Positions 3,236 to 60,286 of a stretch of DNA of 64,000 nt are shown here, one piece after another. The notes under the pieces were generated by a model. That model was not told where the DNA came from. It ran no database searches and saw only the letters and a program-made list of their open reading frames with translations. The stretch lies in the IMG/VR virus record IMGVR_UViG_3300027757_000725, positions 32,001 to 96,000 of that record. The stretch is one strand, 5' to 3'. The translations under genes and the position numbers were made by a program. The stretch is from a virus (taxonomy: Duplodnaviria; Caudoviricetes). Position 1 is the stretch's first letter, and each line of letters starts with the position of its first letter.

Positions 3236-3821
3236 CGTCTGAAAAAGAATCTTTTGATTTGTTTTCCTGCTCTGGTTTTTTGTATTCTTTTTGTGGAGAT
3301 TTATATTCTTTTTGTGGAGAATTTTTATTATATTCGTTCGTATTTGCCTCCAAGCATTTACGTATATATGATTTTAAAAGTTCTTCTATAACAACTGATT
3401 CTCCAGCTTCAATAGGTAGTTTGAATGTTTGAGCTGAATTTCTGATTACAGATAAACCCCAAGCTGGGGTTTCGTGCCACTCATCTCCTTCTTGCCCCAC
3501 AATTTTTCTCTTTTTATCCCAAGGGGTTAATTTTATAATGGTGGTTTCTTCTTTGTTTCTATGAAATGCTACAAAAGGCTTTCTTGATCTAAAGCTAGAT
3601 ATGAACTCTCCAGCCTCCACAAAAGACAACTTGATGGTTGCTGACTTATCTTGGTTTTTTGCATTTTCCTTGAAGGACCCATTTTTTCTTTTGTCATCCC
3701 AGCTGTGTTGTTGTATCATGGAAACAAAAAGTACATTTCTGCCTTCTTTGTCTTTAACTGAATCAAAACTAAAGGCTGAACCAGTATTTTTAGAATTTGG
3801 TTTGTATAATGTATGTTTCAT
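3222..3821 (-). CDS. Putative non-OB single-stranded DNA-binding protein (Whirly/PC4-like) with SSB-type acidic tail
   Basis: Likely start MKHTLYKP at 3821; ends ...DSFSDDVPF (SSB-Ct-like); TIKLSFVEAGEFI and FKLPIEAGESVVI resemble the two Whirly half-repeats. Confidence 0.6.
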   Translation of the reverse strand: MKHTLYKPNSKNTGSAFSFDSVKDKEGRNVLFVSMIQQHSWDDKRKNGSFKENAKNQDKSATIKLSFVEAGEFISSFRSRKPFVAFHRNKEETTIIKLTPWDKKRKIVGQEGDEWHETPAWGLSVIRNSAQTFKLPIEAGESVVIEELLKSYIRKCLEANTNEYNKNSPQKEYKSPQKEYKKPEQENKSKDSFSDDVPF

Positions 3822-3829
3822 ATTTATCT

Positions 3830-3835
3830 GTGTAA
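3830..3835 (+). promoter_or_regulatory. GTGTAA putative phage late promoter for the 3857-11870 fibre operon
   Basis: Recurrent upstream motif, 21 nt before ATG 3857. Confidence 0.6.
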
Positions 3836-3851
3836 CTCTTATAGATAACAT

Positions 3852-3880
3852 ATTGTATGATGGAATTAACAAAAATTCAA
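3852..3880 (-). promoter_or_regulatory. Sigma70-type promoter TTGAAT-17-TACAAT for the SSB/glycosyltransferase operon
   Basis: Reverse complement of attgta (3852-3857) and attcaa (3875-3880), 17-nt spacer. Confidence 0.6.
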
Positions 3881-6835: not shown

Positions 6836-6841
6836 TATATA

Positions 6842-9091: not shown

Positions 9092-9092
9092 C

Positions 9093-11870
9093 ATGAGTTA
9101 TCAAAAAATAAAATCAAATCAATTTGAAAACATAATTTTAGGTTCTAACAGCCAAAATTTATTATTATCTAATAATAACAATTCCGAATTAGATATAAGT
9201 TTAAATCGTTTTTTATCGGGAGACATTTCTGTCAGCGGCTCCATATCTGTAAATGACAAAGAGGTTGTAGTTGAAAAACAACAAACCGACAATTCCTCTT
9301 ACTTTGTTTTCCAAGGGGAAAAAAATATTATTAATGGAGAGAACGTTTTTATACAAGGCTATTCAAATAATGTAAATTCAAATTCTGTATTTTTATTTGG
9401 AAGTGAATCAATGACAATGGAAAAAGGTGCTGACAATATCTTTTCTGTAGGTTCAATGAGTGCAAATGCCACAAGTAATAACATAATATCTGTCTCTAAT
9501 CTTCTTGGCAGTAAGAGTATTGTAGACAAATCTTTTGTTTCTTTGTTTTCATTTAGTAATAATTTCTTCAATGGAGAATCGTATTTTGATAATATAAACG
9601 GGGATACAGTTTTTGCTGACGAAACTTTGTCTTGTTCTGATTTGAAATTGCAAAAAGCGAATGTTAGTGGGGCTTTTATATCTGATTACAGGAGCGAATT
9701 TAACGGTAAAGTAGATTTTGATTCTGATTTAAGAATAATGGGTAATAGTTCTTTTTATGACTTATATAAGGGTGAGAGTCAAGTAGCGGATGAACTTTGG
9801 GTTGAATCTAAAAATTATACAACTGGATTAATAACGGGGGATTCAGAATTATCTGATGGGTTTTCATCTTTGGATTTCAATGTATCTGGTGATGCCATCA
9901 TGAGTGGTCAATCGTTAGTGCTGTTAAACGAAGATTTTTTTGTTGATGGAGATTTTATTATAGACCAAAACTTGGATGTAGGGGATAGGTTTTTTAAAAA
10001 AATAACCATAACTGGAGATATAGCAAAAACTTCTAACTCAGATATTTTAAATAGAGCTTCTATTTTTAATTTAAATTATATTATTACAGGTGATTCTTAT
10101 GTTCAGGTTTTTGGAGAAAGTTATATAACGGGAGAAATTACTGGGCAAGATTCCAGTATACAAAATATATTGCACTACTCTGGGGATATGTTTTCAGATA
10201 ATTTATCTTGCAAGGAGGGTTCTTTTCACAGTAATGATTTAAAGGTAGGAGGTGACTCTCATTTTACAGGTTCGGTTAATTTTTTGGATCAGACGAATAC
10301 TGGTTTCGATGTTGTTGGCGCGGTTAACCTGAGTAGTCTTGATGCAAGCATACTTAATGTGAATGCTGAAGATCTAAACTTTACCAATTTTATTAAGTTG
10401 GGTGGGTCGAACTTAGCTACAGAAAGTTGGATTCAAAATAATTTAATGACTGGTTTTGATCAAAACAGATTAAATGGTGGCTTCAATTCTAGTGATTCTT
10501 ACTTCAATAAAATTGATTGTTTTAGTGGAGTCAATATTGAAGGTTATGGTCTTGATGTCGAAAACCTATATATAGATACTGGAGCTGGTTCAGGAGAATA
10601 CAGGACAAGAATAAAATCAAATAAGAGGGTCGATATAAACAATTCATATGGGAATATATCTTACGGTAATGGAAGCTTTTCTGATCTTATTGGTTATTGT
10701 GATAATTTGCAAATTGAAAATGCTGATCAGATTAATTTAAGTTTTATTAATGGAGCTTCAGAAAAAAACTGGGTTTTTGGGACTAACATTATATTAGACA
10801 TAGATGATTCACAATTAAGTGGCATATTAGTTGATAGTGGTGTTATGAATCAACTTTTTGAAAATCAAAATTTAGGCGAGATTGCTCAATTTGCAAATAG
10901 GGAAGTTATACAGAGAAAAACTCGTAACACAATGATACCAAAGCAAAATAATAAAAGCATTAACGTCGAGATATCTTTGAAAAACGATCTTTCTTCTAAT
11001 ACTTCTAAGTATATAAATTCCTCTTCAGTTGGTCTTTCTAAAGGATGTTTGAGGTTTTCCAACATACAAAACAAATATAGAGCATCAGAAGAAAAGAATG
11101 TTGACTTTGCCACTTCTTTGAGGGATAACCTAGTAAAATGGTATGAGTTTGGTTACGATACAAACAAATATAGTATTGTCGATGGCGATATAACAGGTTC
11201 AAGCAGCTTCCAAAAAGTTACTTTCGAAAGTATTAATGGTCATTGGGATGATAATAAAATTGCATTTTGGGAAAGTGATACGTCATCTTCTTCGGAATAC
11301 TTTTCCCTAAGAGACTCTACATCATCAGAACAAGATGTTTTTAATAACAACAGTACTGTTGCCGCTTCTTATATAAGAAGAAATGCAAACTTATCTAATT
11401 CTGGTCTTTCTCAGCTTATTGCTCCATCAAATGGAGGAACCCCTTCTTATGAGGAGGGTTGTTATTTTATTTACGAAAGTGGTAGTTGGCATTTCCAGCC
11501 TAGATTTTGGGGCGTAGATAATACAATATCATCTACTAGCACATTAGATATTGGTTGGGAATTTGAACAATTTCCAGAGTTTGTGACTGTAGTTGGAACG
11601 TCGCAATTTTATGCAAACCAAGACATAGGGCAAGGATTTAAAAATTATTATACTTATAAGACATATCTGAATGGGGGTTTAGTTCATGAAGAGGTTGATA
11701 CAACCGACACAAACTATAATCAAGTTATGTTTATAAATGAACACAATAACCCAAGACAAGCCATGGCTGTGCAAAATGCTGTGATATCATCAAGACCTTG
11801 GGGTCAGTCGGAGATAGATGCTTACTCTAACTCTGGTCAAAGCATTCCTTATTGGAATATTTACCAATAA
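9093..11870 (+). CDS. Large virion fibre/spike-like protein, paralogue 3 of 3, with C-terminal LamG-like lectin domain
   Basis: QKIKSNQ N-terminus; VADELWVESKNYTTGLI; C-terminal LVKWYEF...KTYLNG...ISSRPWGQSEIDAYSN. Confidence 0.6.
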   Translation: MSYQKIKSNQFENIILGSNSQNLLLSNNNNSELDISLNRFLSGDISVSGSISVNDKEVVVEKQQTDNSSYFVFQGEKNIINGENVFIQGYSNNVNSNSVFLFGSESMTMEKGADNIFSVGSMSANATSNNIISVSNLLGSKSIVDKSFVSLFSFSNNFFNGESYFDNINGDTVFADETLSCSDLKLQKANVSGAFISDYRSEFNGKVDFDSDLRIMGNSSFYDLYKGESQVADELWVESKNYTTGLITGDSELSDGFSSLDFNVSGDAIMSGQSLVLLNEDFFVDGDFIIDQNLDVGDRFFKKITITGDIAKTSNSDILNRASIFNLNYIITGDSYVQVFGESYITGEITGQDSSIQNILHYSGDMFSDNLSCKEGSFHSNDLKVGGDSHFTGSVNFLDQTNTGFDVVGAVNLSSLDASILNVNAEDLNFTNFIKLGGSNLATESWIQNNLMTGFDQNRLNGGFNSSDSYFNKIDCFSGVNIEGYGLDVENLYIDTGAGSGEYRTRIKSNKRVDINNSYGNISYGNGSFSDLIGYCDNLQIENADQINLSFINGASEKNWVFGTNIILDIDDSQLSGILVDSGVMNQLFENQNLGEIAQFANREVIQRKTRNTMIPKQNNKSINVEISLKNDLSSNTSKYINSSSVGLSKGCLRFSNIQNKYRASEEKNVDFATSLRDNLVKWYEFGYDTNKYSIVDGDITGSSSFQKVTFESINGHWDDNKIAFWESDTSSSSEYFSLRDSTSSEQDVFNNNSTVAASYIRRNANLSNSGLSQLIAPSNGGTPSYEEGCYFIYESGSWHFQPRFWGVDNTISSTSTLDIGWEFEQFPEFVTVVGTSQFYANQDIGQGFKNYYTYKTYLNGGLVHEEVDTTDTNYNQVMFINEHNNPRQAMAVQNAVISSRPWGQSEIDAYSNSGQSIPYWNIYQ

Positions 11871-42456: not shown

Positions 42457-42635
42457 TGATTTTTAATTTCCAGTTCTCCAAATATAATACCTCATATTTC
42501 TTCTGATGCATTGTTTAAAGAGCGAATTTTAGTTTGATTAATTGCAAATTATTTTTTAAACAAAAACAATAAAATATATTAAATGCCAGCGTCGTTTATG
42601 TTCCCATATAGTATGTGGCTGTGTATAAGATTTAT

Positions 42636-42890
42636 ATGACAGATTCATCTACACAGACAAGCCTATTAAAGACTATAGGAGCCCTTGGAGCTATAAGAGT
42701 TTCCAGCGCTGATGAAACAATAACTGGAAGCTTTATGGCTATCCATGCACTTGCAGATACAACAATTTTAACTAATACAGAGGGTAATATAGATAACTTT
42801 GTAGGCACTGTTATTTCTACTGGAGACGTTATAGTCGGTGAATGGACTACTTTGAGGATTTCAGGAGAAGCCATCATATACAAGGGGTAA
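42636..42890 (+). CDS. Small beta-rich virion protein
   Basis: Likely start MTDSS 9 nt after GTGTAT; GSFMAIHAL...GDVIVGEWT...SG.AIIY. Confidence 0.6.
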   Translation: MTDSSTQTSLLKTIGALGAIRVSSADETITGSFMAIHALADTTILTNTEGNIDNFVGTVISTGDVIVGEWTTLRISGEAIIYKG

Positions 42891-42893
42891 AAA

Positions 42894-43025
42894 ATGAGAT
42901 TTTTAAATTTATCTCTCAATTGCATACAAAGGCACATAAGATCAACAGTTTCTGTTATTTGCTGCGACTACCTTTGGCAGGATAATATATTATGGAAAGA
43001 TAATTGCTCTTGGAGCGAATCATAA
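42894..43025 (+). CDS. 43-aa Trp-periodic micro-protein (absent from ORF track), paralogue of 51643-51906
   Basis: MRFLNLSLNCIQRHIRSTVSVICCDYLWQDNILWKDNCSWSES. Confidence 0.75.
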   Translation: MRFLNLSLNCIQRHIRSTVSVICCDYLWQDNILWKDNCSWSES

Positions 43026-43059
43026 ACAACAACACTAAATAAAAACAAATTTTTAAAAA

Positions 43060-43647
43060 ATGTCTCAACAAAACTTTACACCAACTGGGGGCTCCACTCA
43101 CTTAGACGCAAGAACCATTTATAACGCCAATGCTGATGATGCAGAATCTAGGTTGGCTATCTTGGAATCATCAACAGTTATAGCCTCTGACATAGACTCA
43201 GAGACAGCCCCAGACAATTATGTTTTAACAGCAGATGGAGCTGGTAACACAGCTTGGGAAGCTGGTGGAGGTGGAGGAGCGCTTTTTAATGTTGCTCTTG
43301 TTACTGGAGTTACACACACACAAGTAAACACCGATAGTCACCACTTATACGATGACACTCTTTTGGGAGATGACAATGGTGGCAGTGGTAGCGGTAGTGG
43401 TAGCGGTAGTGGCAGCGGTGGAAGTAGCGGACCCTGTATAGTTGTAGATCTATTACCTACAGCTCAACATATTGGAGTTACACATCATAAAAAAATAGGC
43501 GACTCCTGCGACATTCTACTTTTACCACCAAGTGGAGTTTTGTTCGATGGCTTGGAAAGTGATGGTCTTGTTAGCGGTTATTCTTTAACTTCGCAACATG
43601 AGTCAATATCAATATTTACTGACGGCACAGATTACTTTATACAATAA
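43060..43647 (+). CDS. Short fibre/adaptor protein with (Ser-Gly)n insert
   Basis: N-terminus shared with 58097; YVLTADGAG..AW fibre motif; GGSGSGSGSGSGSGG; C-terminal LP...KKI...FDG...SISIFTDG fibre domain. Confidence 0.65.
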   Translation: MSQQNFTPTGGSTHLDARTIYNANADDAESRLAILESSTVIASDIDSETAPDNYVLTADGAGNTAWEAGGGGGALFNVALVTGVTHTQVNTDSHHLYDDTLLGDDNGGSGSGSGSGSGSGGSSGPCIVVDLLPTAQHIGVTHHKKIGDSCDILLLPPSGVLFDGLESDGLVSGYSLTSQHESISIFTDGTDYFIQ

Positions 43648-44612
43648 TGAGTCACACACCAAAAGTTCCACCTATAGCAAAATCAACAGCAGAATTACCT
43701 TTAAATGCTGATGATGGAACTATTGCTTTTGATACATCCAAAGAAAAAACTGTAGTAATCAAGAACAATAGCGTAGAAGACATCTCTGGTGGAGATCCTA
43801 GTGTTGTAGGGACGCCATCAATTGTGTTTTTTCAAGGTGGTCGTGTAGAAACAGTACAAGGAGACTTTGTCGGACTGGACAAAATATATAATAATCCAAC
43901 ATTAGGAGACAAGGTTAATTATTTGGTTATAGGATCATCTTGCACAGAGATACAAAATCAATGTTTTTTATTTAACGCATTTGGAGAAGGAACTACAGGA
44001 GACTTTACACTGACTATACCACCAAATTTAAAGAAGATTGGAAATGGTTCTTTTAACAATATCGATGATGTGGCAACTACTTGCGGGATAAAATTAAAAT
44101 TTACCGAAGGCTTAGAATATATTGGCTTATCTGGATTTTCTAATAATGAGAGAATAACAGGAGAAATAAAATTACCAGATAGTTTAACTTTTATTGGTGC
44201 TTTTGCTTTTTCACAAATAGGAAATGCTACAAACCCTATTAATAAATTTACATTTGGCTCTGGTCTTACGGCAATAAGCTGGAGATGTCTTGCATCTTCG
44301 TATATAACTGATATAGTAATACCAAACGGAGTAAAGACGCTCGAAAATTCATGCTTCATGAATATTACTGTATTAGCAAACCTTACAATACCTTCTAGTG
44401 TTGATAATATTGAAAACGAATTCATAGCTTATAGCTCCTCTCTTACATCACTGAACTGTTATGCCGTGAAAGAGGCTTTTGAAAGCCAATCTCTTTTAAA
44501 CTCTTCTATCATAACTATTCACGCTAGAATAAACGATAGCTCATGGACTGCTGGCTCTGGTCAAACAATTGGTGGTAAATCAGGAATTGAAGTAATTAAA
44601 GATTTAACTTAA
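43647..44612 (+). CDS. BspA-type leucine-rich-repeat adhesin, MSHT paralogue 1
   Basis: IPxxxxxIGxxxF repeats; N-terminal LP....GTIAFDT; C-terminal QTIGGKSGIEVIKDL. Confidence 0.75.
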   Translation: MSHTPKVPPIAKSTAELPLNADDGTIAFDTSKEKTVVIKNNSVEDISGGDPSVVGTPSIVFFQGGRVETVQGDFVGLDKIYNNPTLGDKVNYLVIGSSCTEIQNQCFLFNAFGEGTTGDFTLTIPPNLKKIGNGSFNNIDDVATTCGIKLKFTEGLEYIGLSGFSNNERITGEIKLPDSLTFIGAFAFSQIGNATNPINKFTFGSGLTAISWRCLASSYITDIVIPNGVKTLENSCFMNITVLANLTIPSSVDNIENEFIAYSSSLTSLNCYAVKEAFESQSLLNSSIITIHARINDSSWTAGSGQTIGGKSGIEVIKDLT

Positions 44613-44628
44613 AAATAAAAAATAAAAA

Positions 44629-45216
44629 ATGAAATATGCAATTTTATATAGATCTGGGTACATCTTAGAAATAAGAGATACAGAACCCACCGAAGAAGAT
44701 CTTGCACCAGAATATTTAACATTTGAAGAAATTTCAGATGAGGATGCGGTAACATTTGAATCTTCAAGTGAATCAATGCATTATATCAATGGTTCTTTGA
44801 TGGATGAAAAATCATACAGAGACTACATTGAAGTCAGAGCTTTAAATGAAAAAATAGACAAGGATTTTCCCGAAGATCTTGAAGGTGCAAAAAAAGTTTC
44901 AAGAAAGTATTTTGCGAATAAAAGGTATCAATTTGAAGTTGGTGGTATTGATGTGGGTGGTCTTGAAGTTAGAACTGACAGACTTACAGTTTCAAGAATT
45001 TATCAAGCAGACCATCTTGCTTCAGCTGATCCAACTTTTGCTACAGAGTGGAAGCTTGGTGATGGTTCGTTTATTACTGTAGATGCAACTTTAATTGGTC
45101 AGCTTTCAGCATCAATAACTTCGCACATTCAAAACTCTTTTTCTAGAGAGAGAATCGCAAATCAAGGTGTAGATGCCGCCACAACAATCGAAGAACTAAA
45201 AGCTGTAGAGTGGTAA
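44629..45216 (+). CDS. DUF4376-like tail fibre assembly protein
   Basis: RYQFEVGGI...RTDR...WKLGDGSF...ATTIEELKAVEW. Confidence 0.75.
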   Translation: MKYAILYRSGYILEIRDTEPTEEDLAPEYLTFEEISDEDAVTFESSSESMHYINGSLMDEKSYRDYIEVRALNEKIDKDFPEDLEGAKKVSRKYFANKRYQFEVGGIDVGGLEVRTDRLTVSRIYQADHLASADPTFATEWKLGDGSFITVDATLIGQLSASITSHIQNSFSRERIANQGVDAATTIEELKAVEW

Positions 45217-45217
45217 A

Positions 45218-45952
45218 ATGAGTCACACTTCACAAAGTCCCGTATCAAAATATTCAACCGCAAATCTTCCGACTACTGCGGATATTGGAGCTATTGCTTA
45301 CGACACTGATAAAGAGCAACTTGTTTTTTTTGAGTCTGGCGGCTTCTGGAATAGTCTTGGAGGTGCTGGCGTCGATGCGCTTACTGATACGTATATTATA
45401 AACGCCACTACAAATGAAATAAAATCAATATCTGGAGATGTACCCCAAGATTGGGGTGTTAGCAGTATAGATTTTAGGAGTTTAATAGTTGGAAGTAGCG
45501 CTGAAACTATTGGCAGAGATGCTTTTAACAGGCAATCATGGTATGGATATGAATTTACAGGTAATTTAAATATACCGATTGGGGTAAAGTATATTAAACA
45601 AGGTGCGTTTTTTTCAAATGACTTTACTGGTAAGCTTATTTTGCCAGAAGGTCTTATAGAGATAGAAAGTTATGGTTTAGGGCTTTTGCAGGATATGGAT
45701 GCTGGATCACTAGACGAAGCGGGTATGGTTATACCTTCTAGCGTTACCAGTATTGATTCATGGGCTTTTGCAAGTAACCCTATAGTGAGAATTGATTGTT
45801 ATGCACCAAAATACGCGTTTAAAGTAAATTCCTTGAGTACCAATACCGTTTTGCAAACTATTCATGTTCCAATTAATGATACTACATTCACAGCAGGACC
45901 AAATCAAACAGTTGGCGATAAAACAGGACTAGAAATAATTAAAGATTTATAA
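45218..45952 (+). CDS. BspA-type LRR adhesin, MSHT paralogue 2
   Basis: Same termini (QTVGDKTGLEIIKDL); LRR repeats. Confidence 0.75.
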   Translation: MSHTSQSPVSKYSTANLPTTADIGAIAYDTDKEQLVFFESGGFWNSLGGAGVDALTDTYIINATTNEIKSISGDVPQDWGVSSIDFRSLIVGSSAETIGRDAFNRQSWYGYEFTGNLNIPIGVKYIKQGAFFSNDFTGKLILPEGLIEIESYGLGLLQDMDAGSLDEAGMVIPSSVTSIDSWAFASNPIVRIDCYAPKYAFKVNSLSTNTVLQTIHVPINDTTFTAGPNQTVGDKTGLEIIKDL

Positions 45953-45954
45953 TA

Positions 45955-46641
45955 ATGTCTCACACAACTAAAAATCCAGCACTAAAATATACAACAAGTG
46001 ATTTACCTTTAGACTCACCTGTCGGGACTTTAGCTTACGATACAACCGAAAATGTTTACAAATCCTTTGGAGGTTCTTCATGGAGTAAGCTACAGGGAGG
46101 TGCTGGAAGCTCTTCTTATTCTATTCATAGTGACGGTAAGATTGATACTATTTACGGAGATATTCCACAACAATATTATAGAATTTCAAATGATATCGAC
46201 TCTATGATAATAGGATCATCATGCACTAGCATATCTAAGCAAGCTTTTGATAGTTCTAGTCTTTCTAAAATAATTATACCTAGTACTGTAACTACAATAG
46301 GTGAGGAGAGCTTTTCATATTGTTCCTTTGATAGCAATGGTCTTAATCTCACAGAAGGTTTATTAACAATTGAAACATTCGCGTTTTTTCAGGTTACTTA
46401 CCCAGACCAATCCATAGATATACCAAGTACTGTTATTGAAATAGGTAGTAGCGCGTTTTCCTCCTCTAATATTACGAATTTAAATTGTTATGTTGAGTTT
46501 GATGTTATAAATTCATCAAATAGCTTAAGCGCCTCAAATGTAACAGCCATCCACGTTCGCTCAACCGACTCAACTTGGACGGCTGGGGGTGGTCAAACCA
46601 TTGGAGGTAAGACAGGTATTACCGTAATTAAAGATTTATAA
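45955..46641 (+). CDS. BspA-type LRR adhesin, MSHT paralogue 3
   Basis: Same termini (QTIGGKTGITVIKDL); LRR repeats. Confidence 0.75.
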   Translation: MSHTTKNPALKYTTSDLPLDSPVGTLAYDTTENVYKSFGGSSWSKLQGGAGSSSYSIHSDGKIDTIYGDIPQQYYRISNDIDSMIIGSSCTSISKQAFDSSSLSKIIIPSTVTTIGEESFSYCSFDSNGLNLTEGLLTIETFAFFQVTYPDQSIDIPSTVIEIGSSAFSSSNITNLNCYVEFDVINSSNSLSASNVTAIHVRSTDSTWTAGGGQTIGGKTGITVIKDL

Positions 46642-46642
46642 G

Positions 46643-46671
46643 TTGAGAAGCTACGCTTTCTTGGTTATAAT
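46643..46671 (+). promoter_or_regulatory. Sigma70-type promoter TTGAGA-17-TATAAT, leaderless for 46677
   Basis: ATG 5 nt after TATAAT. Confidence 0.7.
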
Positions 46672-46676
46672 TAGTA

Positions 46677-48431
46677 ATGAATAAAGCTAGAAAGATACCT
46701 GTATTTTTCCATATTCCAAAAAACGCTGGTACTTTTGTGTTGAATAGGCTTTTTGCCTACGGCATGGCTTTAAATAAAAAGGACCATGAAAGAACTTCTA
46801 ATAAAAGAATACATATATTAAATGATGGCGATATAGCTTACAGGTTAATTGTTTTTGACCTGAATGACACATGCAATACAGACGATAGATTTAATCAAGT
46901 CTCAGAGCGTCTTTTCGAAATAGACATAAAAAAAATAACACAAGAACTAATAGAAAGTTTTTGTGTTTTTGCTTTAGTTGTTACTGATATAAGTTTTAAT
47001 AAATACGAAGAAGAGATTTTTCCATTTATGCCCAAAGAAGCTGAACTTTATAAGCTTATTCCTTTAAGAGATGCTTTTTCTAGAGCTGTATCTATTTTCA
47101 ATTATTCCAACAGCAAGAAATCTTCTCACGAAAAAATACACGGCTTATATAAAGACTATTCCCTTGAAGAGTATTTGCGTTCAGGAGAAGTCGAAGAATC
47201 TTGGCTAATAAGAAAGTTATTAGGATTATCTGATGATCATTACATAAGCCAGAAAAACTTTAACGAGGCTTGCAAAATACTTGATGATTTTGAGGTTTTT
47301 GATTACAAGGACTCACAGAAACTTATCGAAAACTTCTTTTTAAATTTTTATAACTTCAAACAAGAAAATATGCAGTGGATATTTGACTTGTGGTGTCCAA
47401 TTTATAATAAAAACAAAAAAAAATCTACTTGCTCGATAGAAGATTTTAGTGATGAGGTTAAAGAATTGTTTCTTGAGAAAACCTTCTGGGATAATAAATT
47501 ATATAAAAAATACAAATACATAGAAAAGCAATCAAAAAACGGCAAGATTGTAAACTGTTTTTATAATGGTTCCACAAGCGGGTTTGGAGATTTTTTAAGA
47601 GGCTCGATCCATTTATATAATCATTGCAAAAGTAAAAACTTAGATTTTGATGTAGATATAAGTAACCACCCAATAAAAAGATATTTCAATTTTAATAATG
47701 ACCAGAAGATACCATACTTCATGATAAATGACTACCAAGCTTTGGCTTTGAACTCAGCTAATTTTTTACACTCTCTTAAATCACAAGTGACAAGCTGCCT
47801 TAATTCAACAAAAAAAGGAGAAGTAAAATATATATTCTCGAACCTTCATCAGTGTGTTTTAAGTGGCAACAACATAATTAAATATCAAAACAAGATGCCT
47901 AAACTTAACAAAAAATGTTCAGAGTGGTTTCAAAATAAATTTACTTTTTGCAAGGAGGTTGAGGATTCTTCTTCGTTGATAATGAATCAAAACAATATAA
48001 AAAAGGGGGGATTTGATATTTTACACTTTAGGTTAGGTGATATAGAATCCTTTTCAGAAGATTTTGATAAAGAGGAATTGCTACCTAGATACAAAGAATT
48101 ACTTAAGAAATGCTTGGATTACAAAAAGGAAAACAAAAAACCGACTATGATAATTTCTGATTCAAATCACTTCAAAGAATACATAAAAAATAAAACTGAC
48201 GATTTTATTATACCTCATTTAAAAAGTAATCACACCCAACAATCTCCGTGTGGGTTCAATGGATCAACAAACTTTAACGAAGAAAGTCTTTTCCATACTG
48301 CTTTAGATATGAAACTACTTAGTTCCGCCAGAAACGTAGAATCAAGAAGTATATACTATCATGGTTCTGGTTTCGCATTTTGGATTTGCAAAATTCATAA
48401 CGTGCCTTTTAAAATGAAAATAATAAAATGA
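46677..48431 (+). CDS. Sulfotransferase fused to a fucosyltransferase-like domain
   Basis: FFHIPKNAGT and LRDAFSRAVS (PAPS-binding motifs); GFGDFLRG, HFRLGD, ISDS, TALDMKLL, SGF. Confidence 0.75.
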   Translation: MNKARKIPVFFHIPKNAGTFVLNRLFAYGMALNKKDHERTSNKRIHILNDGDIAYRLIVFDLNDTCNTDDRFNQVSERLFEIDIKKITQELIESFCVFALVVTDISFNKYEEEIFPFMPKEAELYKLIPLRDAFSRAVSIFNYSNSKKSSHEKIHGLYKDYSLEEYLRSGEVEESWLIRKLLGLSDDHYISQKNFNEACKILDDFEVFDYKDSQKLIENFFLNFYNFKQENMQWIFDLWCPIYNKNKKKSTCSIEDFSDEVKELFLEKTFWDNKLYKKYKYIEKQSKNGKIVNCFYNGSTSGFGDFLRGSIHLYNHCKSKNLDFDVDISNHPIKRYFNFNNDQKIPYFMINDYQALALNSANFLHSLKSQVTSCLNSTKKGEVKYIFSNLHQCVLSGNNIIKYQNKMPKLNKKCSEWFQNKFTFCKEVEDSSSLIMNQNNIKKGGFDILHFRLGDIESFSEDFDKEELLPRYKELLKKCLDYKKENKKPTMIISDSNHFKEYIKNKTDDFIIPHLKSNHTQQSPCGFNGSTNFNEESLFHTALDMKLLSSARNVESRSIYYHGSGFAFWICKIHNVPFKMKIIK

Positions 48432-49033
48432 ATAACGACATACATGAAAATGATTATTCAGAATTTATTTATGATTATATAAATAAAGATGTCGGATTTT
48501 ATGTTGATATTGGAGCTTTTGACGGGATCAAAAACAGCAAAACTCTTTTGTTTGAAAAAAAGGGATGGGGTGGTTTATGTATAGAGCCTCAACCAACAAG
48601 CTTTAAAAAACTGGAGAAAAATAGATCTTGTGAAAAGAAAAACTTACTGATAAGTTATTACAATGGTTATAGCGATTTTTTCTATTCAGAAAAAGCTCCA
48701 ATGACAAGTAGGGTTAGTCTTGAGGGAGTTACAAAAAGAATACACCGCATGGATGATGTTAAAAAATTAAATATTAAGTGTTGTAAATTAAATTGTTTGT
48801 GCAAAGAACTAAAAATATCAACAATAGATTTTTTGAAGTTAGACACAGAAGGGCATGATGCTAAAATAATTAATTCTTTAGACTTTGCCGAACTTAATAT
48901 TTCTGTGATAATGTACGAACAGTGGGTTAGACAAGAAGAAAAGGAATATAAAAACGCCGAAATAAAACTTGCAAGAAGTGGGTATAAATTAATTCATTAT
49001 AACCAAGAGAATAAAATATGGAGCAAGATTTAA
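48428..49033 (+). CDS. FkbM-family methyltransferase
   Basis: YVDIGAFDG; GWGGLCIEP; IDFLKLDTEG. Confidence 0.9.
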   Translation: MNNDIHENDYSEFIYDYINKDVGFYVDIGAFDGIKNSKTLLFEKKGWGGLCIEPQPTSFKKLEKNRSCEKKNLLISYYNGYSDFFYSEKAPMTSRVSLEGVTKRIHRMDDVKKLNIKCCKLNCLCKELKISTIDFLKLDTEGHDAKIINSLDFAELNISVIMYEQWVRQEEKEYKNAEIKLARSGYKLIHYNQENKIWSKI

Positions 49034-49782
49034 AAACATCTATAGTAATTATAACTTACGACAAGGATCTGGAATTTCTTAAGTATAGCTTGAAATCAAT
49101 AGCTAAATTTTGTCGCTTTTACAATGAAGTTGTTGTCGTTATAGATCAACACGAAAATGATTGTTTGCAAACTCAGAAATACCTTGAATCTATTGGGCAG
49201 AAATACTTCATAAACAATGACGCAAAGCATATACCCATAGGTTACATAAGGCAGCAGCATATGAAATATTTTATGGAAGAATACTTAGATGATGCTGATT
49301 ATGTTTGTTCTGTTGATAGTGATAATATTTTTTATGGCGACAATAAACCGTCTTGTTTTTTTAAAAATGGGTTACCAATAATTGGCATGCAAAAATGGTC
49401 TGATATGCCAAATAAGTCTTTTAAACAATGCACAAACGAAACTCTTGGTTTTAATTCTGATTATAACTTCATGAGAAGAATGCCTCTTGTTTACCCTTTA
49501 TGGCTTTTTAAAGAGGTTAGAGATTACATTGAAGCTAAACATAGTCAAGGTTTTTTAAGTTATTTTAAAAACCTAAAATATACATCAGAATACAATATAT
49601 TAGGAGCTTATGCTTATAGATTCCATAGAGACTCTTTTTATTGGGTAGATGTAATTAAGAATAAAGAGGAGTGGACAGGGCTTTCGGTGCCATGCACTCA
49701 ATACAGTAATAGAGAAAAAGCTCAACCGAATCGTTATGTAGACTTGTCTAAAAAAGGCAATGTAATAGAAAAAATATTTTAA
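49018..49782 (+). CDS. GT-A fold glycosyltransferase (DUF6492-like)
   Basis: TYDKDL...SI; GYIRQQHMK; VDSD; SEYNILGAY. Confidence 0.7.
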   Translation: MEQDLKTSIVIITYDKDLEFLKYSLKSIAKFCRFYNEVVVVIDQHENDCLQTQKYLESIGQKYFINNDAKHIPIGYIRQQHMKYFMEEYLDDADYVCSVDSDNIFYGDNKPSCFFKNGLPIIGMQKWSDMPNKSFKQCTNETLGFNSDYNFMRRMPLVYPLWLFKEVRDYIEAKHSQGFLSYFKNLKYTSEYNILGAYAYRFHRDSFYWVDVIKNKEEWTGLSVPCTQYSNREKAQPNRYVDLSKKGNVIEKIF

Positions 49783-49785
49783 AAA

Positions 49786-50445
49786 ATGTTAATATCACAT
49801 AAAAATAATTTTGTTACCATAGACATACCCAAGACAGGAACAAGAAGTTTAAGGCAGTCTTTAGAGCCATTGGGAGTAGTTGATATTACAGGATCTCCAA
49901 CTGGAGAATTTAAACAACATGGGGATATAAGATCCTGCGAACAAGCTTTTAAAAGAAACAACTGGGATTTAGATAAATACCTTAAATTTTCGGTAGTTAG
50001 AAACCCTTGGAAAAGATACGTCTCCTATTTAAATTATTATTTTGATGATATAAATGATCTTAAAAAGAAAACACCTGAGTCAAAGGATTGGAGCGATGAA
50101 AGGACCCAGCAAGCATACAAACAAACAGACATATTTAATAGTCTAAATGGTTGCAAAACTTCTTATTTAGAGTATATAATTAACTCTAAAGATTCGCAAG
50201 ATTTTTATATTTTGGACTCTAACGGATGTTTAGCAGTAGATTTTTTAGGAAAAACAGAGTCACTAAATAAATATTTTAATCTTTTTTGTAAAAGAGTTGG
50301 TATAAAGGAATCTGCAGAGTTGGTTATCGGAAACAAAAGCAAATACTACAGAGATTACACAGACTATTATTCAGAAGAATTAGTTAAAATCGTAGAAGAC
50401 AAGGAAGAGTGGGTTTTAAGCAATTTTGATTACAAGTTTGAATAA
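49786..50445 (+). CDS. Sulfotransferase family 2 protein
   Basis: IDIPKTGTRS; FSVVRNPWKRYVS; DFLGKTE; YTDYY. Confidence 0.88.
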   Translation: MLISHKNNFVTIDIPKTGTRSLRQSLEPLGVVDITGSPTGEFKQHGDIRSCEQAFKRNNWDLDKYLKFSVVRNPWKRYVSYLNYYFDDINDLKKKTPESKDWSDERTQQAYKQTDIFNSLNGCKTSYLEYIINSKDSQDFYILDSNGCLAVDFLGKTESLNKYFNLFCKRVGIKESAELVIGNKSKYYRDYTDYYSEELVKIVEDKEEWVLSNFDYKFE

Positions 50446-50480
50446 TAAGTTGTGATTGCAAGTGTAATATATAATATACT

Positions 50481-50816
50481 ATGTCTATTTTTAATGAGGT
50501 GAACAGCACTGAAGAACAATCAAGAAAAAAAGCTGAAAGAATCAAATTTTTAGCCCAGAATTTTTCTAAACAAGCTGTAAGATGTTGGGAAGAAATACAT
50601 GAAACTTTTTATATGAGCAAAAACTGCGACCATATACTTGATTTTCTTGGCGAAGATGCATCTTCAGTAATAGAGTTCAACGAACAGCTGTTTGCTTTTA
50701 TTCATGAATCTTTGTCAGGTAAACAACAATCATTGATTGACAAACTATTACTAAAGCGTACAGAAGAGCCAGATTTCGAAGTTAGTGATGACGGAAATGT
50801 ATCAAGATCACAGTAA
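50481..50816 (+). CDS. Hypothetical protein
   Basis: GTGTAA 13 nt upstream. Confidence 0.65.
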   Translation: MSIFNEVNSTEEQSRKKAERIKFLAQNFSKQAVRCWEEIHETFYMSKNCDHILDFLGEDASSVIEFNEQLFAFIHESLSGKQQSLIDKLLLKRTEEPDFEVSDDGNVSRSQ

Positions 50817-50859
50817 TCATCTAAAGGGGTGTTTTTTGTGTATTATCTTGTAATATCTT

Positions 50860-51561
50860 ATGCAGAATCAAGAGATGGAAAACAAGTTCGAAAATTTTTT
50901 TTACAAAGTCAAAAAAAAATGCTCAATGCACAAACATAAACATTTTTTTGATATATATGAAACACACTTCAATCAATTTTTAGGTAAAAACCCAAAAATT
51001 CTAGAAATAGGAGTTGGGCAAGGAGGCTCTCTTGAAATGTGGAATTATTACTTTGATGGGGAATGTGAAATATATGGTATTGATATAGATCCAGATTGTT
51101 TAAAGCATCAAGATACTCTTGGATTGAAAAACGTAGATATAACTATTGGGGATCAAGAAAGCAATGAATTTTGGGATAATTATCTTTTTGACAAGCCGAA
51201 ATTTGACATAATCATAGATGACGGTGGACATACAATGAATCAACAAATCGTTACTTTCGAAAACACTTATGAAAAAATGTCAGAATCTGGAGTTTATTTA
51301 TGCGAAGACGTTCAAACAAGTTATTTCCATGCTTTTGGAGGAGGATATAAATCAGAAGGTACGTTTTTAGAATATAGTAAGAACCTCATCGACGGTCTAA
51401 ACAGCAACTATAGTGATCATTCTGGTGGAAATTTCATACCTTATAATGAAGATCGCTTAACGGCTATACACAAGTCTACAAAATCCCTTACATATTATAA
51501 TGCCGTTTTGGTTTTTCAGCGGCAAAAGTACACAGAATATAAAGATGTTTTTTCAGTTTGA
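50860..51561 (+). CDS. Class I SAM-dependent (sugar O-)methyltransferase
   Basis: ILEIGVGQGGS; YGIDID; GDQ; DIIIDDGGH; YLCED. Confidence 0.88.
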   Translation: MQNQEMENKFENFFYKVKKKCSMHKHKHFFDIYETHFNQFLGKNPKILEIGVGQGGSLEMWNYYFDGECEIYGIDIDPDCLKHQDTLGLKNVDITIGDQESNEFWDNYLFDKPKFDIIIDDGGHTMNQQIVTFENTYEKMSESGVYLCEDVQTSYFHAFGGGYKSEGTFLEYSKNLIDGLNSNYSDHSGGNFIPYNEDRLTAIHKSTKSLTYYNAVLVFQRQKYTEYKDVFSV

Positions 51562-51642
51562 ATAAATATTGAAATAAAACAGTAAGGTTGTTTCTTTTTT
51601 TAAATAGTATTCCCTGAATCACAAGAATGTGTATACATAAAT

Positions 51643-51906
51643 ATGGGCATGAAGCTTTTGACTATATTCGGGAACACTATAAGGGGCGGTCACGTTACAT
51701 CCACAACTATCGGTTGCTGTTACGAACTTTGGAAAGATACTCAGGTTTGGCTTGATAATTGTAAATGGAAAGAGCCTGATGAAGTCGTTGGGGATTGTGT
51801 TGTTTGGTCAGAATCAGAACTCTGGGTTGAATCAGACCCCTTCTTAGTACAAGGAGTTTGGAATGCATCTGAAATTTGGGATCAAAGTTCAAACTGGTGT
51901 AATTGA
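51643..51906 (+). CDS. 87-aa Trp-periodic micro-protein
   Basis: Three W-x5-W clusters; N-terminal half paralogous to 42894; own GTGTAT motif. Confidence 0.75.
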   Translation: MGMKLLTIFGNTIRGGHVTSTTIGCCYELWKDTQVWLDNCKWKEPDEVVGDCVVWSESELWVESDPFLVQGVWNASEIWDQSSNWCN

Positions 51907-51976
51907 TTTTTCTTACTTTGCACTCAAGAACTTATTGATATTTTTGCGTAAAAAGAAAAATGGGTGATAGATAAGT

Positions 51977-52972
51977 TTGGTTGTGATTTCAATTTACATA
52001 GAACATTTCTTAAAGAAACGATTTATCGGAAATGTATCTTTTGATAATGTTGAATTTGTTGATTCAAAAGATGAGGCGGATTTCTGCATAAAAAAAGTTT
52101 TTTTTGATGATATAAATTCTGAGTTTTTTAAGAATAATTCAAAAACAATTTGTCTTATGCAAAGTATACCACATAAAAAAAGAGTTGATATCAGAAAAGG
52201 TTATTGCGTCGACAACAGAGTAGATATACCAACTATCAAGAACTTTTGCTTTAGTACTAATGATTTTTGTAATATACCATATCTCATCCCAACCCCAAGT
52301 GGTCCGATACGAAGCGGGTTTATATCACAAAAACCAAAATACTGGTTAGATTATAATATTAAAAATACAGATTTTTATAATAAAGTTTATTGGTGTGGTA
52401 GTAATTCTACACACGCAACACGAAAAGAGTTCTATGATTTTTACAATACTTTTGATGACGATAGATTTAATATAATTAAGTTTACGTCAAATGTCTATCA
52501 AACCGAAACATCACCAAGTATATATACAGATTACATTGAAGAGTTATCTAAATCTGATATATCCTTTGTTCTAAGAGGAGACAAAACTTTTGCAAACAGT
52601 TTTTTCGATGTTATTATGGCGGGATGCATACCAGTTATGATTTCGTCTATGAATTATTTTGGCTGGGAAAACATATTTGAGAATGTAGATGATTACATGT
52701 TGAGGTTTGATTTAAGAGAACATTCTATGGAATATATTCATGAGCAAGTGGTGCTTCTCTTAGAGGATAAGGAACGAGTTCTTCGCATGAAAGCAAATAT
52801 TGCAAACTTTTATAATAAATTCTTCAAACATTCTGCAAATTTTGGATTTGCGGAATTCCTTATAGCAAAGTGTATAGAGATATACAAAAACGATTTTGAT
52901 ATTGAGAAGATAGATAATGAGTTTATTTGTTCAGAGTTCTTAAAGCTTAAGGGCATAGATGGCAAGTTATAA
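51977..52972 (+). CDS. Exostosin-family (GT47-like) protein
   Basis: YWCGS..TH..R; YIEELSKS..FVLRGD; FFDVIMAGCIPV. Confidence 0.8.
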   Translation: MVVISIYIEHFLKKRFIGNVSFDNVEFVDSKDEADFCIKKVFFDDINSEFFKNNSKTICLMQSIPHKKRVDIRKGYCVDNRVDIPTIKNFCFSTNDFCNIPYLIPTPSGPIRSGFISQKPKYWLDYNIKNTDFYNKVYWCGSNSTHATRKEFYDFYNTFDDDRFNIIKFTSNVYQTETSPSIYTDYIEELSKSDISFVLRGDKTFANSFFDVIMAGCIPVMISSMNYFGWENIFENVDDYMLRFDLREHSMEYIHEQVVLLLEDKERVLRMKANIANFYNKFFKHSANFGFAEFLIAKCIEIYKNDFDIEKIDNEFICSEFLKLKGIDGKL

Positions 52973-58096: not shown

Positions 58097-58525
58097 ATGG
58101 CACAGACTAATTTTTCTCCTACACCAAATGTTTCTACTCATGCAGATGCTACAGCCGTTATTAATGATAACGCGAACGACGCTGAATCAAGATTAGTTTC
58201 AATAGAAGCCAAATTCACACAGCAAACAATTACTTCTTCCTCTGGGATTCTTGGGTTAAATACTGATGATGGTAATCACGCAATAGTTACTTTAACCGAA
58301 AACATATCTGATTTCGCTATTTCAAACGCTTCAGCTGGAGATAACGGCTTGATTGTTGTTAGGCAAGATGGAACAGGAGGTTGGACTTTTGCAACATCTC
58401 ATGAAGTAGCTGGAGGCTTTATTTCTGATATAAGTACTGTAACAATTAATAGCGTTGGCTACATAACTATTAGTTGGTATTTTGATGGATCTAATTACTA
58501 CTTGTTTATATCAGAACCAAAATAA
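58097..58525 (+). CDS. Short fibre/adaptor protein, N-terminal paralogue of 43060
   Basis: NF.PT...STH.DA....N.NA.DAESRL; C-terminal VTLTENI...VRQDGTGG...YFDG domain. Confidence 0.65.
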   Translation: MAQTNFSPTPNVSTHADATAVINDNANDAESRLVSIEAKFTQQTITSSSGILGLNTDDGNHAIVTLTENISDFAISNASAGDNGLIVVRQDGTGGWTFATSHEVAGGFISDISTVTINSVGYITISWYFDGSNYYLFISEPK

Positions 58526-58531
58526 AAAAAA

Positions 58532-60286
58532 ATGATAATACAATCATTTAGAAGCGATAATGATTTAACTTTATTATATTCATCGCAAACTCAACTATAC
58601 CCTTTTCTAACAGGTTCTGGATTTGATACAGTATCTTATCAAAAAGATTCTATAGATGGTGATATACCATCAAGCGGATACAACAACACTGGAATTAATT
58701 CTGTTAGAGTTGGGGCATCTTGTGGTTTTATAGGAGATGAGGCTTTTGAATCTTGTAGTATTTCAGAATTGAACTTCCAAGAAGGTGTCACAGGGATTGG
58801 TGCTTTTTCCTTTGCAGATAACAGAATAAGTTATTTAAAAATGCCAGAATCATTAGTCGAAATTGATTCTGGTTGTTTTTCAAATGCTCTTTCTCAAGCT
58901 TCTGTCGAATTTAACTCAACTTTAACTTCTATTCCAGAACGTGCTTTTTTCAATTGTTCTTTTTCAACATTGTTGGATATACCTTCTAATATAACTAGTC
59001 TATCTGAAGAAAGTTTTGGCTATTGTTTTTTTGGGAGTGGTTTTAATATTCCTTCTAGTATAGATAAACTACCTCTGCGTTGCTTTATAGAATGCAATAT
59101 AACCGACAATGATTTAAATATAGACACTCAAATAATAGGGTCTGGAGCTTTTTTAGGTTTTGTTTCAGATGGAGCAGATATAACAGTTTCAACTGGGGTG
59201 ACTTCTATTGAAGATTTTGCATTTTCTAACGTCTATATAGAAAATGGGCAGCTAAACTTCAATCCAAGTAATAACTATATACCAAAAGACTGTTTTAACA
59301 GTTCTTACATAGACAAGCTTGTTATAGGTGATAATATAACAAACATAAAACCTTCTGCTTTTTATAAATTCAATCCATCTGCAGAATTTCTTTCTGGTAA
59401 TGAAAGAACCGAATATATAACAGACGAATCTAAAATTGTTTTAGGTAATTCTATCACAGGAATTGAAAGCGGAGCTTTTGAAGATTGTTTTGCTGGTCAA
59501 CTTTATATTTACAACATTCCAGCTTCTGGATTCCACGATAATTGTTTTGATCCTGAAATTATGCCCAACTGCTTTACTGCAAGCTCTATTTCAATACCTT
59601 CACTTCAATACTCTACTGGTATAATACCAACTGGAGAAAGGTTAGGTTGCTATAAATATGAAACAAATTATACAGGAACTTCTGATTTTTCAAACTTAGA
59701 CGCTTACTCTATAAGTATTGATTGGTGGGATGGTTGTAAAATCACACAATACTGTGTTGAAAATAATTTAGATTCACCATTTTCTGGAAATGTAATTCTG
59801 CAAGAGGATTGTCAATATTGGCCTAACTCTGGGAATCATCCTTGGACAGGTTATGCTTGGACTGGACTAATTAATGAAACAGATAATGATTACGCACTAG
59901 GTGGCTGGGTTCTTAATGCTTCTGGTGATAGTTTATCAGAATCCCACCCTTGGATTTTACCGAAGACAACTAAAGAAAAAGATATATTTAATGAGTATAG
60001 TGAAACATTAAAACCTAAATTTTATGATAGAATTAATGGAGAAATTTTTTGGGTTGGCGATGTATCAGGAAACTACATAAACTTAGATAGTGGAGCCTCC
60101 AATCTAAACATAGAAGTAATGCAATCTGGAGAAACTCTCGCAGAAACAGATTGGTTTTCGCCTTATGGAATAATTTTTGCTCATCCCGATATTGTAAATC
60201 AATATGATGACGATTGGGTTAGTAGGGTTAAATATGCAGGTAGAGTCTTAGAGTGGGAAACAGGAACTTATCCAGAAACTTACTAA
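58532..60286 (+). CDS. BspA-type LRR protein
   Basis: Multiple VTxIGxxAF/IPxxxTxI repeats. Confidence 0.8.
   Translation: MIIQSFRSDNDLTLLYSSQTQLYPFLTGSGFDTVSYQKDSIDGDIPSSGYNNTGINSVRVGASCGFIGDEAFESCSISELNFQEGVTGIGAFSFADNRISYLKMPESLVEIDSGCFSNALSQASVEFNSTLTSIPERAFFNCSFSTLLDIPSNITSLSEESFGYCFFGSGFNIPSSIDKLPLRCFIECNITDNDLNIDTQIIGSGAFLGFVSDGADITVSTGVTSIEDFAFSNVYIENGQLNFNPSNNYIPKDCFNSSYIDKLVIGDNITNIKPSAFYKFNPSAEFLSGNERTEYITDESKIVLGNSITGIESGAFEDCFAGQLYIYNIPASGFHDNCFDPEIMPNCFTASSISIPSLQYSTGIIPTGERLGCYKYETNYTGTSDFSNLDAYSISIDWWDGCKITQYCVENNLDSPFSGNVILQEDCQYWPNSGNHPWTGYAWTGLINETDNDYALGGWVLNASGDSLSESHPWILPKTTKEKDIFNEYSETLKPKFYDRINGEIFWVGDVSGNYINLDSGASNLNIEVMQSGETLAETDWFSPYGIIFAHPDIVNQYDDDWVSRVKYAGRVLEWETGTYPETY

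Follow-up and report, generated by a model that had tools for sequence, protein, structure and literature searches.

Two micro-proteins encoded by an uncultured tailed phage carry hexad-spaced tryptophan (Trp) clusters and may act as modular docking strips, or adaptors, of its fibre apparatus, each cluster serving one fibre species that bears a shared N-terminal module, here called anchor A. We assign this reading a probability of roughly 0.55. The stretch analysed (the window; 64,000 nucleotides (nt)) comprises positions 32,001 to 96,000 of the IMG/VR record IMGVR_UViG_3300027757_000725, and is part of a contig of ~119 kb with a GC content of ~33%. Besides a DnaE-type polymerase and a ribonucleotide reductase, the contig encodes many glycan enzymes and has a large region of fibre genes. 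The short copy is a 43-amino-acid (aa) protein at 42894..43025 (+) and the long copy an 87-aa protein at 51643..51906 (+). Profile and pairwise comparisons identify both open reading frames (ORFs) as real micro-proteins of one undescribed family that is distributed in uncultured, mostly marine tailed phages.

In the proposed mechanism, the conserved N-terminus of the peptide, together with a co-translated 83-aa jelly-roll-like protein (the beta protein), would fix the peptide to the virion, and each Trp cluster would hold one fibre species through the 38-aa anchor-A module. The number and type of clusters would decide how many and which fibre species are carried. In the window, the 43-aa peptide would serve the 195-aa fibre protein 43060 (43060..43647, +), encoded directly after it, while the longer Trp run of the 87-aa peptide would serve the 142-aa short fibre 58097 (58097..58525, +). 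From sequence relationships we infer that the peptide is present in the virion and physically binds the fibres; docking of its N-terminus on a virion protein is suggested by the conservation of that segment and by its coupling to the beta protein. The host range of a phage is decided by the way in which it carries several kinds of receptor-binding fibre together. Provided that the pairing is physical, fibre valency would be readable from metagenome sequence, with clusters countable from sequence alone, and the cluster would represent a very small portable docking module for attaching fibres. Should the docking-site reading be true, it would constitute a new structural principle for multivalent host-recognition organelles, found in an abundant group of uncultured marine phages whose peptide genes are often missed by gene callers. 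Micro-ORFs in fibre operons could then be structural organisers and not noise.

The two ORFs are paralogous, as a preliminary description of the window had proposed. In a single BLASTP comparison, all 43 residues of the short ORF align to the start of the long one with 35% identity (E = 4e-10), and the conserved Cys, Trp, and Glu residues are encoded in part by different synonymous codons. A family hidden Markov model (HMM) recognises the 43-aa ORF with E = 1.5e-15 and the 87-aa ORF with E = 4.7e-22. The short peptide harbors one cluster (W28, W34, and W40), a Cys-Cys pair at positions 23-24, and C38. The long peptide harbors a triad (W29, W35, and W41) followed by a continuous six-hexad run (W55, W61, F67, W73, W79, and W85), in which Phe takes the third place. 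The same description had split the long ORF into clusters of 3, 2, and 3 Trp and had taken the triad as the counting unit; the layout is instead one triad plus one six-hexad run, and the unit that fits the fibre counts given below is the contiguous run of three or six. In the six-frame translation of the window, W-x5-W-x5-W occurs six times compared with 0.085 in shuffles, and three of the six occurrences fall within the two ORFs.

The short ORF starts 3 nt past the stop codon of the beta-protein gene, with an AAGGGG Shine-Dalgarno-like motif 8 nt 5′ of its start, and ends 34 nt ahead of fibre gene 43060, in agreement with its described position between a small beta protein and that fibre. The long ORF sits among glycan-modifying genes, with a methyltransferase gene on one side and a GT47-like glycosyltransferase gene on the other, and is the only copy seen without an adjacent beta gene. 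Fourteen public contigs encode the exact 87-aa protein, a collection of 15 billion proteins lacks the 43-aa form, and the peptides of relatives are nearer to the 87-aa copy. The ratio of nonsynonymous to synonymous substitution rates (dN/dS) is 0.05-0.14 for the 43-aa form against its orthologues in loci L095 and L068 and 0.08-0.3 among relatives. These values (0.05-0.3) indicate that the peptide genes are translated and constrained; the genes are coding and under purifying selection.

The loci analysed yield 41 distinct peptides of 43-184 aa. Their consensus is MRLLRIxGNxIxRRxxxxVxxxGCCxxLWKDxxxWDDDCxWKE, followed by zero to three further clusters, such that each peptide consists of three parts: a basic N-terminal segment of ~22 residues (M-R-x-L-R-I-x-G-N-x-I-x-R-R...), an invariant Cys-Cys, and one to four acidic clusters. 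M1, C23, C24, W28, C38, and W40 are invariant, and L4, N9, D30, W34, D36, and E42 are nearly so. The N-terminal part carries a charge of +2 to +5 and the remainder one of −2 to −31. The hexad consensus is W-[DKE]-[DN]-[SND]-[EC]-[ILV]. Among 35 distinct peptides, Trp runs have lengths of 3 (61 times), 6 (8 times), 2 (7 times), and 1 (twice), but never 4, 5, or 7, and further loci show the same pattern. Three hexads would match the threefold symmetry of a trimeric fibre N-terminus, which may explain the runs of three and six.

The peptides vary in length by whole modules. L006 and L086 differ by a 66-nt indel, and a 47-aa duplication of a six-hexad unit separates L063 (184 aa) from L090 (137 aa). 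The N-terminal 22 residues are conserved and the C-terminus is variable, the first cluster matching the leader in conservation; in some members the chain terminates with an FP-rich tail (e.g., ...NFPIILE). Some members also read RRRFVAVVLATGCC in the N-terminal segment, which superficially resembles a twin-arginine or lipobox sequence and would be expected if the peptide were a membrane peptide or secreted as a lipoprotein, acting for instance in superinfection exclusion or lysis, with its signal peptide and lipobox ending at the first Cys. Such a function is scarcely credible. The hydrophobic stretch measures 4-9 residues and is absent from both window copies (GGHVTSTTIGCC and HIRSTVSVICC) and from several clades, and the genomic place of the gene is a fibre operon with no lysis cassette. 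A twin-arginine or lipobox signal peptide was rejected on the absence of the hydrophobic region in many members. N-x-C/S glycosylation sequons and a calcium-binding loop were also considered and found no support.

A profile search of 1.84 billion representative proteins retrieves 19 clusters (50% identity), all of 59-137 aa and all with E ≤ 1e-13. No weaker matches lie below these 19; therefore, the family is isolated. All members come from uncultured, mostly marine, phage contigs. Neither peptide, nor the family profile, has a Pfam, PHROG, or PDB-sequence match, ESM Atlas gives no usable match, and tblastn of both peptides against 50,697 GenBank phage records returns nothing meaningful; the components of the system have no relative in GenBank phages. 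The literature search found no description of such a Trp-cluster peptide family. Searching IMG/VR for relatives with the 87-aa peptide alone, or with its GT47-like neighbour, likewise returns nothing. The beta protein, used as a query of IMG/VR, yields 18 loci, and in all 17 that reach past the beta gene a Trp-hexad ORF follows 0-3 nt after it. A degenerate DNA pattern, derived from the codons of the invariant Cys, Trp, and Asp residues, locates 27 true loci in IMG/VR and ~50 in JGI metagenomes. A conserved neighbourhood accompanies the Trp-hexad ORFs of these loci, with the beta gene upstream and, on the downstream side that the preliminary description had suggested examining, fibre genes. 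Matches of the DNA pattern in L020, L031, L034, and L036 are false positives, chance hits on TGG/TGY-rich tandem DNA unrelated to the family, and the match in L026 was discarded as no open reading frame exists there. The arrays in L020, L031, L034, and L036 read as W-C-D-W repeats, and the contigs that carry them include a giant-virus metagenome-assembled genome.

Anchor A is the 38-aa N-terminal module common to 43060, 58097, and one to three fibre genes per relative (consensus M[AS]Q..F.PT.G.STH.DAR..NAN..DAESRL.ALE; 60% mean column identity); the anchor HMM recognises 43060 with E = 1.4e-21. When each contiguous run of three or six Trp is counted as one cluster, the cluster count equals the count of anchor-A genes in all 7 whole records searched. 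One cluster accompanies one anchor-A gene in G001 (98.5 kb), two accompany two in G003, G004, and G006, and three accompany three in G002, G005, and G010, with G002 and G005 representing one lineage with nearly the same peptide. G010 (runs of 3, 3, and 6) was found via the anchor search after the rule had been stated; it belongs to a different peptide lineage, its beta gene is canonical, and its peptide gene had escaped the DNA pattern. The same equality is seen in loci with long flanks, at two and two in L042, L065, L112, L116, and L077 and at one and one in L057. The closest comparison is that of L006 (one cluster) with L086 (two clusters). Their DNA is 98.8% identical up to the indel, which spans exactly one cluster, and past it a 142-aa anchor-A gene is present only in L086 and not in L006.

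The type of cluster also covaries with the type of anchor. The ‘P[TI]PN[VQ][ST]TH’ subtype of anchor A, to which 58097 belongs (‘PTPNVSTH’), accompanies 7 of 8 peptide sets with a six-hexad run versus 1 of 26 without one (Fisher p = 1.2e-5, counted on distinct peptide sets with a motif picked after the data had been seen). The window fits this pairing, although the 87-aa gene and 58097 are 6 kb apart.

Several observations weigh against a docking strip with one cluster per fibre species. The counting rule holds only if the six-run is taken as one unit, a choice made after the data had been seen, and most data points are two-and-two and phylogenetically related. The window has three clusters in two peptides versus two anchor-A genes within its 64 kb, and the 1.6-kb fragment of L094 has one cluster versus two anchor-A genes. 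Fibre N-termini from the FP-rich-tailed clade give only weak matches to the anchor profile (17.8 and 8.5 bits). L137 encodes an anchor-A-like fibre, yet no Trp cluster occurs anywhere in this 37.8-kb, 93%-complete provirus. The AlphaFold2 (AF2) model of the 87-aa monomer, built on a 28-sequence alignment, has no secondary structure and a mean predicted local distance difference test score (pLDDT) of 55.6. The same covariation of clusters with anchor A is, moreover, predicted by a different function, that of a fibre-specific assembly factor. The earlier proposal that peptide length sets fibre valency therefore stands in part: the whole records and the one-cluster indel pair support it, whereas the window and L094 deviate.

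As an assembly factor, the peptide would template or chaperone the trimerisation of anchor-A fibres in the cytoplasm, with one cluster per fibre species, and would not enter the virion. Small fibre chaperones beside fibre genes are common, and a disordered AF2 monomer is compatible with such a role. This possibility is a doubtful one. A chaperone is less needed because DUF4376 and other assembly-factor-like small genes are already in the fibre operon, the assembly-factor role of the 154-aa gene of that operon being our own reading. The cluster is also found within larger, probably structural proteins, namely a tail-tip-adjacent protein and a baseplate wedge subunit, which is a better fit to a docking site.

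The first of these is a 563-aa protein of L040 (11586-13277, +) whose gene directly follows a 1608-aa ORF that ends the tail-tip gene row. It contains a 22-aa Trp-cluster insertion, DGCDGVWYNNEIWDNNEIWP, at residues ~163-184, encoded by DNA of which 57 of 66 nt (86%) are identical to the 3′ end of the same phage's own peptide gene. A 40%-identical homologue in L052 lacks exactly those 22 residues. The second emerged from a reverse search that proceeded from anchor A outward to nearby Trp clusters. L135 is an unrelated, high-GC, myovirus-type contig with a Baseplate_J gene, and its baseplate wedge subunit (3208-3975, +; phrog_203 and phrog_4920, profiles ending at residue 226) continues into a C-terminal tail that contains W234, W240, W246, and W252. 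The gene for an anchor-A fibre starts 25 nt on. Judged on these sequences, the Trp cluster is portable into what are probably virion proteins.

The reverse search also leads to L139, a second unrelated phage. There, a 42-aa ORF (1052-1180, +) combines a basic N-terminus that contains GN with the triad IWVDASIWNDVEIW and lies 20 nt ahead of an anchor-A fibre gene. A 50-aa paralogue (2498-2650, +) follows that fibre and differs in its tail, which has no Trp. The first 23 residues of the two micro-ORFs are identical despite ~14 synonymous differences, and each ORF lies just 5′ of a different fibre-like gene. Their GN-containing basic N-terminus, a feature also of the family, points to a possible distant relationship with it. 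Pseudoalteromonas phage H105/1 and its relatives have only the C-terminal domain of the L139 fibre in common with this locus, and have neither the anchor nor a Trp micro-ORF.

A more general proposal follows the docking-strip reading, namely that a Trp cluster of three or six hexads is a portable pseudo-threefold site for a trimeric fibre N-terminus, and that the fibre repertoire of a phage is written either as a string of such sites or as a site grafted onto a baseplate or tail-tip protein. We regard this generalisation as tentative.

The anatomy of the peptide is also consistent with a self-standing micro-fibre or adhesin. In that case, the chains would trimerise via Cys-Cys (an interchain cystine knot), and a short rod, beta-helical or a Trp ladder, built from the acidic Trp hexads would bind host glycans or calcium. 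The Cys-Cys pair is invariant, some minimal members have an odd Cys count, and the 18-residue quantisation agrees with a beta-helix turn of three faces. Sequence divergence is faster in the clusters than in the beta protein, which is typical of parts in contact with the host, and the phage encodes many glycan enzymes. An adhesin predicts neither the equality of cluster and anchor-A numbers nor the pairing of subtypes, and is unlikely on these grounds. In addition, Pfam gives neither a lectin match nor one to the hexapeptide repeat (Hexapep) of left-handed beta-helices, whose signature [LIV]-[GAED]-x2-[STAV]-x differs from the hexad consensus of the peptide, the 18-residue periodicity being the only feature in common, and no fold is predicted.

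A conserved N-terminus joined to a variable, repeated, Trp/Cys-rich C-terminus further resembles the multi-core precursors that give rise to ribosomally synthesised and post-translationally modified peptides; the conserved leader would here precede repeated Trp/Cys cores. The preliminary description had already favoured such a precursor less, and the gene content makes it highly improbable. Among 50 ORFs of the window and 10 of relatives, Pfam scans detect no radical-SAM, YcaO, lanthionine, P450, or leader-peptidase gene, and thus no maturase, but only tail, fibre, replication, and glycan genes. Moreover, the cluster is embedded in large proteins as well, and the gene is locked to fibre genes rather than to enzymes.

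A docking strip of the kind proposed here has its nearest functional counterpart in branched systems of receptor-binding proteins (RBPs). In these, a short conserved peptide at the N-terminus of secondary RBPs attaches them to an adapter or to a T4 gp10-like branching domain; examples are the gp37-type adapter of K1-5, K1E, and SP6, gp66 of G7C, RBP1 of the KP32 type, and the tailspike protein complex of the Ackermannviridae (PMC6872550, PMC13352976, and PMC11414711). Multi-fibre carriage is understood only for a few cultured podoviruses and Ackermannviridae, via folded gp10-like domains. Several RBPs that share a short N-terminal docking peptide, which here would be anchor A, are hung on one adaptor, and the number of sites sets the number of RBP species, as the match of cluster counts to anchor-A genes suggests here. 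Sites and RBPs are exchanged as modules. The differences concern the adaptor itself, as the known ones are folded T4 gp10-like domains of at least 100 residues, whereas the clusters are acidic segments of 18-36 residues on a peptide of 43-184 aa and can be grafted into other virion proteins. The phages differ too, in that those described here include siphovirus-type relatives with lambda-like tail-tip genes, while the known adaptors come from podoviruses and Ackermannviridae. A T4 gp10-like branching domain was not found in the peptide by Pfam, PHROG, or PDB-sequence matching, the AF2 model has no folded domain, and there is no sequence relation to gp10. On the evidence available, the Trp-cluster system would work like the branched-RBP adaptors but outside that family, with no gp10-like domain and no predicted fold.

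Two further analogies can be drawn. PAAR-repeat proteins and T4 gp5.4 are single chains whose internal pseudo-threefold repetition allows binding to a homotrimer. By analogy, such an arrangement would explain why Trp residues come in threes; however, PAAR is a folded cone that caps the tip of a beta-helix and not a string of sites, and the peptide has neither a PAAR motif nor a Pfam match. In the cohesin-dockerin scaffoldins of cellulosomes, the number of repeated sites sets the valency of subunits with a common docking module. The resemblance to the peptide is one of analogy only, the folds, sizes, and biology being unrelated.

The beta protein of the window (84 aa; 42636..42890, +; jelly-roll or cupin-like) has its true start at ATG 42636, and its homologues measure 83-84 aa. 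With a mean column identity of 75%, it is far more conserved than the peptide. Its AF2 model (pLDDT 78.9) is a small jelly-roll or cupin-like barrel, for which fold matches are weak and generic, of the cupin or double-stranded beta-helix type (Foldseek E ~0.04, TM 0.45-0.5; VIA Z ≤ 6.4, within the range of common arrangements). The cupin metal motif G(X)5HXH(X)3-4E(X)6G is absent from the beta protein, which has one invariant His (H37) and a Leu at the position of the second. It resembles many uncharacterised phage proteins of 80-95 aa. In 86 of 88 copies, the beta gene lies at the head of the fibre operon and the peptide gene follows it directly; the two that differ are the 87-aa copy of the window and L094. 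L094 is the only locus in which beta and peptide genes are separated; between its beta gene and its one-cluster peptide gene lies a gene for a 152-aa anchor-A protein of the 58097 subtype (979-1437, −). A 101-aa antisense ORF (42632-42937, −) overlaps the beta gene and is seemingly conserved in relatives, but is almost certainly no gene and only reflects the strong conservation of the sense frame.

The GTGTAT motif described upstream of both window ORFs holds up and extends to the relatives. In the window, TGTGTAT plus 9 nt (42620..42635, +) precedes the start codon of the beta gene, a leader that is invariant in nine aligned upstream regions, and TGTGTAT plus 8 nt (51628..51642, +) precedes the 87-aa ORF. 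In every related locus, TGTGTAT followed by 8-9 nt (N8-10 at the widest) and ATG is invariant ahead of the beta gene, and in L011-L013 and L017 the element heads a divergent tail-tip operon too. The comparison covered 42583-42635 and 51600-51642 of the window and the DNA upstream of each beta gene in L001-L054. The distance from TGTGTAT to ATG 51643 is like that before the beta genes of relatives, making 51643 a better candidate than 51649 for the start of the long ORF; with TGTGTAT before it, the long copy therefore probably has a late-operon start signal of its own. The relatives also have a TGAAATATTTGCCAT box ~13 nt further upstream of TGTGTAT, and two copies of this box in L008-L010 and L040. 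Taken as a bare 8-mer, TGTGTATA shows no significant enrichment in the window (6 versus 2.4 expected), only its position before start codons being conserved. The TGTGTAT leader is probably a late promoter or leader of these phages and the start signal of the fibre operon, and is unlike sigma-70.

The divergent operon of the relatives encodes lambda-like tail-tip proteins (Phage_tail_L and JAB). On the 3′ side of the peptide gene, some lineages encode a helical protein of 97-111 aa, followed by short and long fibres, leucine-rich-repeat (LRR) proteins, and DUF4376 proteins. The window encodes a 111-aa member of the helical group at 50481..50816 (+), which has no Pfam or PHROG match and is related by BLASTP to ORFs of L014 and L016 (32-34% identity, E from 1e-18 to 4e-22). 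Homologues of this protein directly follow the Trp-peptide gene in several relatives.

An LRR gene follows each anchor-A fibre gene of the window, and the BspA-type LRR proteins are located at 43647-46641 and 58532-60286. Three of the proteins, 43647, 45218, and 45955, have in common a second conserved N-terminus, MSHT.K.P..K..T..LP...G..A.DT, which may represent a second docking tier in the same apparatus.

A glycan-modifying island is situated among the fibre genes at 46677-52972 and encodes sulfotransferase-like, FkbM and other methyltransferase, and GT47-like proteins, as well as one with a weak Stealth-like match. Homologous islands are present at the same place in L037, L057, L065, L112, and L116. 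The position of the island suggests that the fibres are glycosylated. The window also harbors three consecutive, very large ORFs of 992, 749, and 925 aa (3857-11870, +). The second and third resemble each other at the N-terminus (..KIK.NQ...), the second also matches the grass antifreeze beta-roll domain, and the three may form another set of fibre or surface proteins.

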